DNA of 64,000 nt from Chlamydiales bacterium (GTDB taxonomy: Bacteria > Chlamydiota > Chlamydiia > Chlamydiales > SM23-39), in assembly GCA_035480535.1 (NCBI GenBank), contig DATIHQ010000001.1:2814-66813 (forward strand), written 5' to 3'. Positions within the stretch are counted from its first letter, which is position 1, and each line of letters starts with the position of its first letter. The translations under genes and the position numbers were made by a program. A model generated the notes under the pieces. It was not told the DNA's origin, searched no databases, and worked only from the letters and a program-made list of their open reading frames with translations. Positions 47,291 through 47,973 of the stretch are shown here, piece after piece.

Positions 47291-47399
47291 GAAATCTGAA
47301 GTCCACCCCAGAGGGAAATCTGAAATCTGAATTATGAAATCTGAAAACGTCGGGGCTTCGCCCCCGCACCCCCAGTCGGGTGAAGCCCCCGCTGCCCCC
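47291..47399 (-). repeat. R1 dispersed repeat (full unit plus extra tail), left arm of the inverted pair around the four-helix-bundle gene
   Basis: GAAATCTGAAGTCCACCCCAGAGGGAAATCTGAAATCTGAATTATGAAATCTGAAAACGTCGGGGCTTCGCCCCCGCACCCCCAGTCGGGTGAAGCCCCCGCTGCCCCC. Confidence 0.9.
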
Positions 47400-47401
47400 A
47401 T

Positions 47402-47788
47402 TTAGTTGGCTTTTGTTTTCTTAGAGACTGAGGTGAAGATAGCGACTAATTCTTCGGCTTCTTTATATAGGGAGGATAGGCGGTTTTTGGGGATGAGTTT
47501 TGTGTCCATCAGCAGTTCTAACCAATAGAGAGATTCGTCAAGTTCCTGGAGGGTTAGATCTAGTTTAGCTACAAACTCCGCTTTTGACCGCCCTCTATAA
47601 GCCTCTCGTAGGTGGGCTCCAGCAGAAGTGCCGCTTCTAAGCAGCTGTTTTCCAATCATCCCGGCGGCCATTGTCTTGGGTAAATGGGTATATAAATTAA
47701 CGACTCTAATAGCAAATTTTTTAGTACGATCCCTTAAATCCCCCTTAACGGGGTGCGGGGGCGAAGCCCCGACGTTTTCAGATTTCAT
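47402..47788 (-). CDS. four-helix-bundle protein (23S rRNA intervening-sequence protein family, TIGR02436/PF05635-like)
   Basis: DLRDRTKKFAIRVVNLYTHLPKT..GKQLLRSGTSAGAHLREAYRGRSKAEFVAKL..ELDESLYWLELL. The start codon and first ~14 codons lie in R1. Confidence 0.75.
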   Translation of the reverse strand: MKSENVGASPPHPVKGDLRDRTKKFAIRVVNLYTHLPKTMAAGMIGKQLLRSGTSAGAHLREAYRGRSKAEFVAKLDLTLQELDESLYWLELLMDTKLIPKNRLSSLYKEAEELVAIFTSVSKKTKAN

Positions 47789-47973
47789 AATTCAGACTTC
47801 AGATTTTCCCCATGGGGTGCGGGGGCGAAGCCCCGACGTTTTCAGATTTCATAATTCAGACTTCAGATTTTCCCCATGGGGTGCGGGGGCGAAGCCCCGA
47901 CGTTTTCAGATTTCATAATTCAGACTTCAGATTTCCCTCTGGGGTGGATTTCATAATTCAGATTTCAGATTTT
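47750..47973 (+). repeat. R1 tandem array: three 64-bp units (47750, 47814, 47878) plus a core-deleted fourth unit
   Basis: GGGGTGCGGGGGCGAAGCCCCGACGTTTTCAGATTTCATAATTCAGACTTCAGATTTTCCCCAT is repeated head to tail. The last unit is GGGGTGGATTTCATAATTCAGATTTCAGATTTT. Confidence 0.95.

Follow-up and report, generated by a model that had tools for sequence, protein, structure and literature searches.

The window analysed here is a stretch of 64,000 nucleotides (nt) from a Chlamydiales bacterium (GCA_035480535.1, contig DATIHQ010000001.1, positions 2,814 to 66,813). It contains a small gene cassette in which a four-helix-bundle gene (47402..47788, minus strand) is enclosed by inverted copies of a dispersed repeat, R1, built around tandem 7-nt units. 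The same layout recurs around relatives of this gene, and inverted heptamer arrays are the usual packaging of PF05635/TIGR02436 genes across phyla. The feature is probably a cassette of the type known from ribosomal RNA (rRNA) intervening sequences (IVSs), located here outside rRNA, expressed by read-through and accompanied by arm derivatives that resemble MITEs (miniature inverted-repeat transposable elements). A preliminary description of this DNA, made from the sequence alone, proposed a cassette with a repeat-borne start codon and MITE-like derivatives, and that anatomy is largely right.

The gene is an intact open reading frame (ORF) encoding 128 amino acids. Profile hidden Markov models assign it to PF05635 (6.1e-19, 68.7 bits, cutoff 33.8) and TIGR02436 (1.2e-22, 80.1 bits, cutoff 24), in both cases above the curated cutoff, in agreement with the family membership first proposed for it. 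PF05635 is its sole Pfam match, and its sequence matches the BT_0352 structure (PDB 2RLD) at 8.9e-24. The AlphaFold2 (AF2) model, with a predicted local distance difference test score (pLDDT) of 88.9, has four helices at residues 14-34, 40-65, 69-95 and 101-127. Foldseek comparison of this model gave template modelling (TM) scores of 0.8-0.9 for 2RLD, ~0.77-0.86 for 2GSC (Xcc0516) and ~0.7-0.8 for the Avd structures 4DWL and 8UB7, the last at a sequence identity of ~14%. Every invariant position of the alignment is kept. The conserved family motif of helix 2 has been quoted as GxxRxxxSxxxNxxE (PMC3936711); residues R51, S55, H59 and E62 align with RxxxSxxx(N/H)xxE, with H replacing N (a replacement also common among close relatives of the protein) and the leading G offset (G46). 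The family was originally said to have no known function, which holds for free-standing members, the domain still being termed functionally uncharacterised in 2024 (PMC11270868), but not for the homologous Avd, a known cofactor of the reverse transcriptases of diversity-generating retroelements (DGRs). An identical protein is recorded only from the source Chlamydiales metagenome-assembled genome, the next best relative is 62% identical, and PADLOC and PHROGs searches with the protein gave no match.

The start codon of this gene is supplied by the repeat. The ATG at 47788-47786 is codon 1, an in-frame TGA lies two codons upstream, and the next ATG, GTG or TTG is codon 40, inside helix 2, in accordance with the claim that the repeat-borne ATG is the only usable start. 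Residues 1-13 are repeat-encoded and predicted to be disordered, the N-terminal MKSE is encoded by heptamers, and the predicted fold starts exactly at the junction between repeat and gene.

The 5' arm (47750..47941, on the minus strand with the gene), identified as a direct repeat family and by a period-7 scan, comprises three tandem 64-nt R1 units arranged head-to-tail at 47750-47813, 47814-47877 and 47878-47941, with identities of 100/100/94%. On the gene strand each unit consists of the heptamers AAATCTG AAGTCTG AATTATG AAATCTG followed by a GC hairpin (GGGGC-TTC-GCCCC), and each heptamer unit (AAATCTG/AAGTCTG/AATTATG) bears a TGA. The innermost unit gives the ATG and codons 1-13, and the outer units encode mini-ORFs of 17 and 4 amino acids. 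An outermost partial unit (47942..47971, minus strand) has the heptamer array alone, as an AT-rich tail (core-less copy at 47947-47973), together with a CACCCCAGAGGG linker. It begins immediately past the TAA (47974-47972) of the upstream Fe-S gene and closes all three frames within 15 nt (TAA 47974, TGA 47967, TGA 47960). The 3' arm (47286..47401, minus strand), the reverse complement of the 5' arm, fills the interval from the ORF stop to the lpdA stop and contains GC hairpin modules at 47373-47399 and 47349-47372, a heptamer array at 47310-47349 and outer heptamers at 47288-47304; the second GC hairpin of this arm adjoins the ORF stop. Complementarity between the arms extends over 99 nt at 89% (47274-47372 with 47878-47976) and over 67 nt at 93% (47306-47372 with 47750-47816). 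A 47-nt core occurs four times with no mismatch, including a copy in the 3' arm identical to the 5' units, where shuffled sequences lead to an expectation of 0.

The inverted-repeat search, with arms of 67-99 nt, thus bears out the inverted R1 copies that the preliminary description saw bracketing the ORF, and the coordinates and identities agree with its account of the right arm as three 64-bp units plus a core-deleted fourth. Its left arm is indeed an inverted R1; the extent given for it, 47291-47399, was too short and becomes 47286-47401, with the two GC hairpin modules. Within the window, the 16-nt heptamer core has 8 copies versus 0.07 expected (including those at 1856, 2074 and 23936), and a period-7 scan of the full length gave signal at the R1 sites only, which form three loci in 64 kb. 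An assembly of the same species (L004, 4958-5247) has at least four full 64-nt units versus three in the window, and two assemblies end inside the tandem array (including L001, 1-32); the tandem copy number of the unit is uncertain, being either polymorphic or collapsed by short-read assembly.

The mini-ORFs of the 5' arm form a relay towards the gene. The ATG at 47954 leads to a TGA at 47915-47913 that overlaps the ATG at 47916 as ATGA; this second frame ends at the TGA at 47865-47863, 10 nt ahead of the ATG at 47852, which in turn leads to the TGA at 47801-47799, with the gene ATG 47788 10 nt downstream. RNA folding of the cassette gave -299.9 kcal/mol (z = -11), and the arms can pair into a duplex of ~100 bp.

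The association between gene and inverted arrays was examined in 80 metagenome loci containing the closest relatives of the protein (47-60% identity), which were fetched without the repeat in the query. Flanks of 150 nt were scored for their best period-7 self-match (maximum 21), with a score of at least 14/21 called as an array, and the controls were 1133 windows of the same contigs and other ORF-free gaps (a small set, n = 33). The mean self-match was 15.5 upstream and 16.3 downstream versus 9.6 in the 1133 controls, and periods of 5, 6, 8, 9 and 10 in the flanks were at background level. An upstream array was called in 81% of loci and a downstream one in 84%, with 95% of loci having at least one of the two and 70% having both; the controls reached 5% and the other ORF-free gaps 30% (Fisher p ~1e-6 to 2e-7 for the gaps). 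Upstream tandem heptamers include GGATGAA, TGATGAA, TTATGAA, GAATGCA, TAAGAAT and TAGGAAT, among others, with their reverse complements downstream. The complementarity of upstream and downstream arms has a median local score of 18.5 versus 7.5 for direct comparison. Furthermore, once near-duplicate loci had been removed, arms paired with their own partner at a median of 18.2 versus 10.0 with foreign arms (p = 3e-16). The link between repeat and gene is thus not due to chance and holds family-wide, with relatives from many phyla enclosed by inverted heptamer arrays.

Nine complete plasmids of cultured organisms have arrays on both sides of every four-helix-bundle gene examined (9/9), with lineage-specific units such as AATTCAA, GTCGGAG, TTTAGAT and GGATGAA. 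The carriers are Pseudanabaena, Chlorohelix, Bernardetia, two Nostoc, Gloeocapsa, Treponema, Monoglobus and Chondrinema (Cyanobacteriota, Chloroflexota, Bacteroidota, Spirochaetota and Bacillota), and because these are isolate plasmids the pattern is no metagenome artefact. A second cassette is present in one of the metagenome contigs (L029, 1334-1814), where a divergent EVWQ-type ORF (1463-1768) is preceded by GGTGGAG arrays and followed by CTCCACC arrays; more than one subfamily thus shows the pattern, and the two cassettes of this contig bear different heptamers. The AAATCTG/AATTATG heptamers of the window are a rare variant, otherwise observed only in an Anaerolineaceae locus (L003) and in a gene-less hairpin (L002). 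In L003 the motif stands directly past the stop of the four-helix-bundle gene and its mirror image (GAAGTCTGAATTATGAATTCAGAAAA) directly before the start, and the cassette sits between two ABC-transporter genes. Since the L003 protein is only 53% identical, this 22-nt heptamer match reflects convergence and not recent transfer of a whole cassette. The GC hairpins of R1 are a peculiarity of the Chlamydiales lineage studied here.

The arrays have a polarity with respect to the gene, being purine-rich on the gene strand in 90% of upstream arrays and pyrimidine-rich in 84% of downstream arrays. The best 28 nt of the upstream arrays close all three sense frames in 53% of cases, compared with 11% of shuffled 28-mers, 1% of random 28-mers and 10% of downstream arrays; ATG is present in 81% of upstream arrays and ATGA in 73%. 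Among loci with a callable co-directional upstream ORF, the stop of that ORF falls in the array itself in 40% and within 10 nt in 60%. The gene start is inside the array in 25 of the 48 strictly scored loci, and the array ends at a median of 28 nt before the conserved DLxxRT, with native N-termini of the family only 3-10 residues ahead of this motif. Heptamer-encoded N-termini in relatives include MKDE (ATGAAGGATGAA), MNYE (ATGAATTATGAA) and MQNE (ATGCAGAATGAA). A repeat-supplied start, as first described for the window, is therefore common in relatives, 25/48 together with the published Xcc0516. Of the upstream neighbours, 51 point the same way as the gene and 9 the opposite way; for the downstream neighbours the numbers are 37 and 20. 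On the plasmids the genes lie between operon partners (csx2|cas1, helicase|methylase, KAS III|M20 hydrolase, DUF1156|HEPN, hsdS|hsdR and RND adaptor|permease), and the four-helix-bundle family is known inside cas operons (PMC3936711). In L017 (~150-320) a tandem duplication of ~85 nt upstream takes in the array and the beginning of the gene, from its start codon through its first codons (…GAATGCAGAAGGAAGAAAACAACCTGCGGAAACGAACGAAGGACTTCGAC… twice). In L022 (2880-2933, at the contig end) a new TGATGAA array replaces the gene past the 3' arm and ATGAG, the response-regulator start in the orthologous L025, which means either that a second insertion took place or that the assembly was joined at repeats.

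The two arms of a cassette change together, and they do so more quickly than the gene. In L003 and L067 the same ABC-transporter genes flank the cassette and the proteins are 75% identical, but the heptamers differ. This is equally compatible with homogenisation of the two arms at the DNA level. Co-inheritance of arms and gene was considered and rejected, as the correlation between arm sequence and protein identity is weak (Spearman 0.34), and the pair of arm sets most alike comes from proteins only 53% identical.

At its own locus the cassette lies downstream of two co-directional genes recognised by Pfam, a Fer2 ferredoxin (48542-48805, minus strand) and a DUF1858 + Fe-S_biosyn protein (47972-48529, minus strand), and it meets the convergent lpdA gene (dihydrolipoyl dehydrogenase; 45915..47285, plus strand; Pfam), the stop codon of which abuts the 3' arm. 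The C-termini of the flanking genes are the same as in relatives (...SHGY* and ...PIH[IL]*), and the cassette and its arms therefore fill the whole stop-to-stop gap (47286-47971). A consensus scan of 47100-48700 found no promoter-like site, which is weak evidence. Within 5 kb lie an E2 subunit gene, lpdA, the Fe-S and Fer2 genes and a gene for a 1054-amino-acid protein without Pfam match. Sizeable ORFs beside the R1 sites (49053-52217 and 1018-1836 on the plus strand; 2078-4204 and 22716-23552 on the minus strand) have no Pfam match at E <= 0.001. No rRNA occurs anywhere in the window, where nothing reaches the Rfam gathering score.

Comparison of the gap between lpdA and the Fe-S gene, which the preliminary description had put forward, places the cassette as absent from close Chlamydiales relatives: those with an Fe-S protein 80-86% identical have no four-helix-bundle gene, R1 or period-7 array at this site. 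In related Chlamydiales (L085-L089) the gap is a variable hotspot. One relative has an ORF of 103 amino acids and an AAA_14/DUF4143 ATPase there, another an ORF of 574 amino acids, a phage-type integrase, Fic and a PemK/MazE pair, and one hotspot relative has genes for a RelE-like and an HTH protein upstream. Relatives carry these other insertions in place of the cassette, which is a lineage-specific arrival at a variable spot. The intergenic DNA of the relatives is too diverged, and too occupied by other insertions, for an empty-site comparison to define exact cassette boundaries or a target duplication.

R1 is also present without the gene. A hairpin element of ~270 nt (1843..2102, plus strand), located between convergent genes, aligns first with the innermost 5' unit and next, from 1-3 nt past the ORF stop, with the 3' arm. 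Both GC hairpins are covered in the same order, ~45 nt replace the ORF, and the right arm has a 56-nt insertion; the predicted RNA fold is a long hairpin (-134.7 kcal/mol, z = -9). Matches in the 45-nt centre (CTAAAAAA, TCTCT..AACT) were considered as ORF remnants and rejected as too short to be meaningful. The ATG-led frame noted earlier at 1864 is present. The adjoining gene for a 708-amino-acid protein (2078-4204, minus strand) has its last 7 codons and stop encoded by the array (2078-2100, ENLKSEL*), and the ABC-transporter gene in L003 (2225-2250) likewise ends in an array (...EIEIMKSEL*), so that near-identical heptamers form host-gene tails in unrelated phyla. A solo R1 arm with two GC hairpins and a heptamer array (23863..23961, minus strand) stands directly past the stop of a TamB-like gene (23960-27328, minus strand); a TTG-started ORF of 123 amino acids with a hydrophobic N-terminal part (23599-23970, plus strand) ends within it and is a candidate gene. 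These copies fit the interpretation of ORF-less or single-arm derivatives of the cassette element. The element at 1843-2102 has terminal inverted repeats, small size, no coding capacity and several copies, as expected of a MITE. The MITE-like derivative of a mobile cassette proposed at the outset is borne out as far as a collinear ORF-less copy is concerned, but its mobility is not, as the ends of the three window R1 loci have no direct repeat (target-site duplication), no transposase lies near them, and cassettes occupy conserved positions in related genomes.

Outside the window, scanning a single genome of each species for the 22-nt heptamer tail recovered just two foreign loci (L002 and L003) besides a fragmented assembly from the window's own species (L004). 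L002 (Bacteroidales, 2590-2665) is a gene-less inverted hairpin of TTCAGAT units (ATTCAGATTTCAGATTTCAGAATGCAG ... ATTCTGAATTCTGAATTC) between two co-directional genes. Other gene-less inverted heptamer pairs, some with GC-rich central palindromes and built like the R1 hairpin, were observed in L068 (1726-1958), L065 (4374-4641) and L041 (3989-4073). Arrays distant from the gene share more 7-mers with the gene arms of their own contig (0.26) than with those of other contigs (0.08). The alternative proposal that R1 is a portable 5' module for such genes fails, since its essential heptamer part belongs to a broad class of intergenic arrays that need no such gene beside them and are present in 30% of the other ORF-free gaps of the same contigs.

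These observations suggest how a promoter-less gene of the S23p/Avd superfamily, enclosed by two mirror-image 7-nt arrays, could be expressed. In this Chlamydiales genome each array is joined to a GC-rich hairpin to form the 64-nt R1 unit, and on the 5' side this unit has been amplified 3-4 times. Transcription is most likely by read-through from the ferredoxin and Fe-S-assembly genes, because the cassette fills the stop-to-stop gap behind these genes in the same direction. The array would then halt the incoming ribosome and allow restart at an in-array ATG. As the period is 7, one TGA per heptamer closes all three frames after the host gene, and the AATTATG unit offers an ATG in an ATGA stop/start overlap, with the mini-ORF relay ending at the gene ATG. 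The arms may pair into the ~100-bp duplex and be processed by RNase III, by analogy with the rRNA elements, and such processing would explain why the insert is tolerated in operons and in rRNA.

Several points weigh against this interpretation. No Shine-Dalgarno-like sequence precedes ATG 47788, and the protein of the Coxiella IVS is not detectably made (PMC4990558). In the minimum-energy fold it is the outermost unit that is paired, and the innermost unit, which bears the start, stays free; in other pairing registers the start would be buried. An intrinsic (bidirectional) terminator formed by the GC hairpins followed by GACGTTTTCAGATTTC was considered and rejected, as it did not pass a consensus scan, which gave only a weak site at 47312-47295. 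The 80 loci were drawn from one subfamily and include some orthologous sets, the gap control is small, and heptamer arrays without the gene are common, with 47 distant arrays in 262 kb of metagenome contigs. The polarity has exceptions, among them L090 (1080-1760, Pseudanabaena plasmid), L005 and L063, where the upstream arrays are pyrimidine-rich (TTCCGCC/TTCTTCC); on the downstream side of these three the purine-rich array comes first and the pyrimidine-rich array after it, as though the gene stood beside a complete hairpin and not inside one. Finally, arm mismatches across loci comprise 121 G:U and 124 A:C, which gives no sign of selection on the sense RNA specifically and lowers confidence in RNase III processing. 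Arm pairing could instead be maintained at the DNA level or by concerted evolution.

The strand symmetry of these mismatches is what a constraint on DNA predicts, and it suits the view that the cassette is a MITE or small transposon, in which the arrays are terminal inverted repeats for a transposase or recombinase encoded elsewhere, the gene is cargo, the gene-less R1 copies are non-autonomous and RNA pairing is a by-product. Inverted termini bounding a ~0.7-kb unit with a collinear gene-less copy (1843-2102), three R1 loci within 64 kb, absence from close relatives at a variable hotspot that in one relative holds an integrase and toxin-antitoxin genes, and the occurrence of the gene family in many unrelated operons (plasmids; PMC3936711) are consistent with it. 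It is nevertheless considered unlikely. Target-site duplications are lacking at the three window loci and in the other loci read, and a transposase is lacking near the cassette. The supposed terminal repeat varies between loci and is made of slippage-prone tandem units, and the different heptamers of the orthologous cassettes in L003 and L067 indicate turnover in place with no conserved transposase site. The 51:9 orientation bias relative to the upstream gene points to a constraint on expression.

A gene flanked by inverted copies of a dispersed repeat is the diagnostic layout of genes for the transposases (RAYTs) associated with repetitive extragenic palindromic (REP) sequences, and the cassette has this layout. 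By that model the four-helix-bundle protein would recognise its own flanking arrays, as DNA or RNA, and maintain or spread them, the gene-bearing hairpin being the master copy on which gene-less arrays depend. Paralogues with different heptamers in one contig (L029, L050) and the 7-mers that distant arrays share with the arms of their own contig are in line with such recognition. Xanthomonas and Nostoc, noted for excess heptamers (PMC4692102), both carry the gene family, and Avd, the homologue matched by fold, is a pentamer that binds nucleic acid and acts together with a reverse transcriptase (PMC10053308). The model is distinctly improbable, however, for a family without known catalytic activity in which recognition of the array by the protein is putative, several heptamer families per contig are unlike the arms of the gene, and arm sequence tracks protein identity weakly. 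A broader form of the analogy with RAYTs and hairpin-forming REP doublets (REPINs), which is thought quite unlikely, would make four-helix-bundle proteins and heptamer arrays two halves of one widespread system, with the gene-bearing inverted array as master, a protein that binds or maintains its own heptamers as RNA or DNA, and gene-less hairpins, 23S IVSs and the 7-nt excess as derivatives. The remaining explanation is chance, whereby copies of a generic repeat came to lie to the left and right of a gene gained by horizontal transfer, cutting off its native start and leaving a fortuitous ATG and a silent gene. The missing ribosome-binding site, the disorder predicted for residues 1-13, one-in-three odds of an in-frame ATG, which are not small, and the Coxiella S23p that is not detectably made would all accord with such damage. 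Chance co-location is very improbable because of the family-wide arrays and the properties of these arrays: the same architecture surrounds ~95% of relatives in many phyla, native N-termini are short and often heptamer-encoded, and the gene keeps all invariant positions together with a confident four-helix model.

On the favoured interpretation, a read-through-expressed cassette of IVS type, three long-separate puzzles are joined, namely the rRNA IVSs with an unexplained ORF (since 1990-93), a huge four-helix-bundle family of unexplained function that recurs inside operons and defence loci, and the heptamer excess of bacterial genomes. The larger result is that the family travels between inverted heptamer arrays, which provides a checkable rule, inverted period-7 arrays around PF05635 genes. 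If this rule holds genome-wide, it would offer a model for how a promoter-less gene can be harmless in operons and rRNA (stops in every frame, a start within the array and a stem that can be cleaved), an aid to start-codon placement in annotation of the family, and an indication of tractable organisms (Xanthomonas, Bacteroides and Nostoc).

The cassette can be compared with several known systems. It resembles DGR Avd in its predicted four-helix fold, but no reverse transcriptase or template/variable repeat pair is present within 5 kb, where R1 provides the sole repeats. It resembles REP/REPIN-RAYT systems and MITEs in being small and hairpin-forming, with a gene between inverted short repeats that are also scattered gene-less at gene ends. 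Unlike RAYTs, the gene belongs to PF05635 and not to the IS200/IS605-type (HUH, Y1) transposases, and the termini are tandem arrays and not a fixed palindrome. Unlike MITEs, the three window loci have no target-site duplication.

23S rRNA IVSs carrying an S23p ORF are known from Coxiella burnetii, Leptospira, Brucella and Haemophilus. The IVS of Coxiella has a 28-bp terminal stem, the S23p ORF and 2-3 tandem GACAGAT units directly before the ATG, with a copy number that varies between strains; it is excised by RNase III, with the 5' cut at the first heptamer (PMC4990558). The cassette shares with 23S IVSs a protein of the same family in the loop, complementary termini that would form a long stem, and tandem heptamers right before the ATG, and with the Coxiella element also a variable heptamer copy number, an ORF in sense to the host transcript and a poor ribosome-binding site. 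However, it lies between protein-coding genes and not in 23S or 16S rRNA, its arms are ~100 nt compared with 28 bp, and it has extra GC hairpins, tandem 5' amplification and dispersed gene-less copies.

The arrays themselves resemble the heptamer repeats described as GGGAATC in Xanthomonas, GGGGAYT in Nostoc, TAACTGA in Beggiatoaceae and the short tandemly repeated repetitive (STRR) sequences of cyanobacteria, in their period of 7, their intergenic location and their frequent contact with start or stop codons. One-orientation stops in all frames are a further shared property, and convergent inverted pairs are frequent in Xanthomonas (PMC4692102, PMC4679880). In Xcc there are 186 GGGAATC arrays, 70 of them as convergent pairs, and heptamers are over-represented in bacterial intergenic DNA without explanation (PMC4692102); the TAACTGA arrays of Beggiatoaceae place all-frame stops just upstream of start codons (PMC4679880). 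In contrast to the cassette arrays, these repeats have been treated as stand-alone (G-quadruplex or regulatory) sequences, with no tie to the four-helix-bundle family. A literature search, thin on subscription journals, found no general rule tying the family to flanking heptamers, and returned only the Coxiella IVS paper for the two together. Another parallel is with free-standing four-helix-bundle genes (BT_0352, 2RLD; Xcc0516, 2GSC), which the cassette gene resembles in sequence, fold and placement inside or at the end of operons. Xanthomonas GGGAATC array #15 (x4) lies 6 nt past bccP, with an overlap of 17 nt at the XCC0516 start codon (supplement of PMC4692102). XCC0516 is the crystallised member of the family, on whose identity the heptamer study is silent (supplement of PMC4692102), and like the cassette gene it has its start codon inside a heptamer array.

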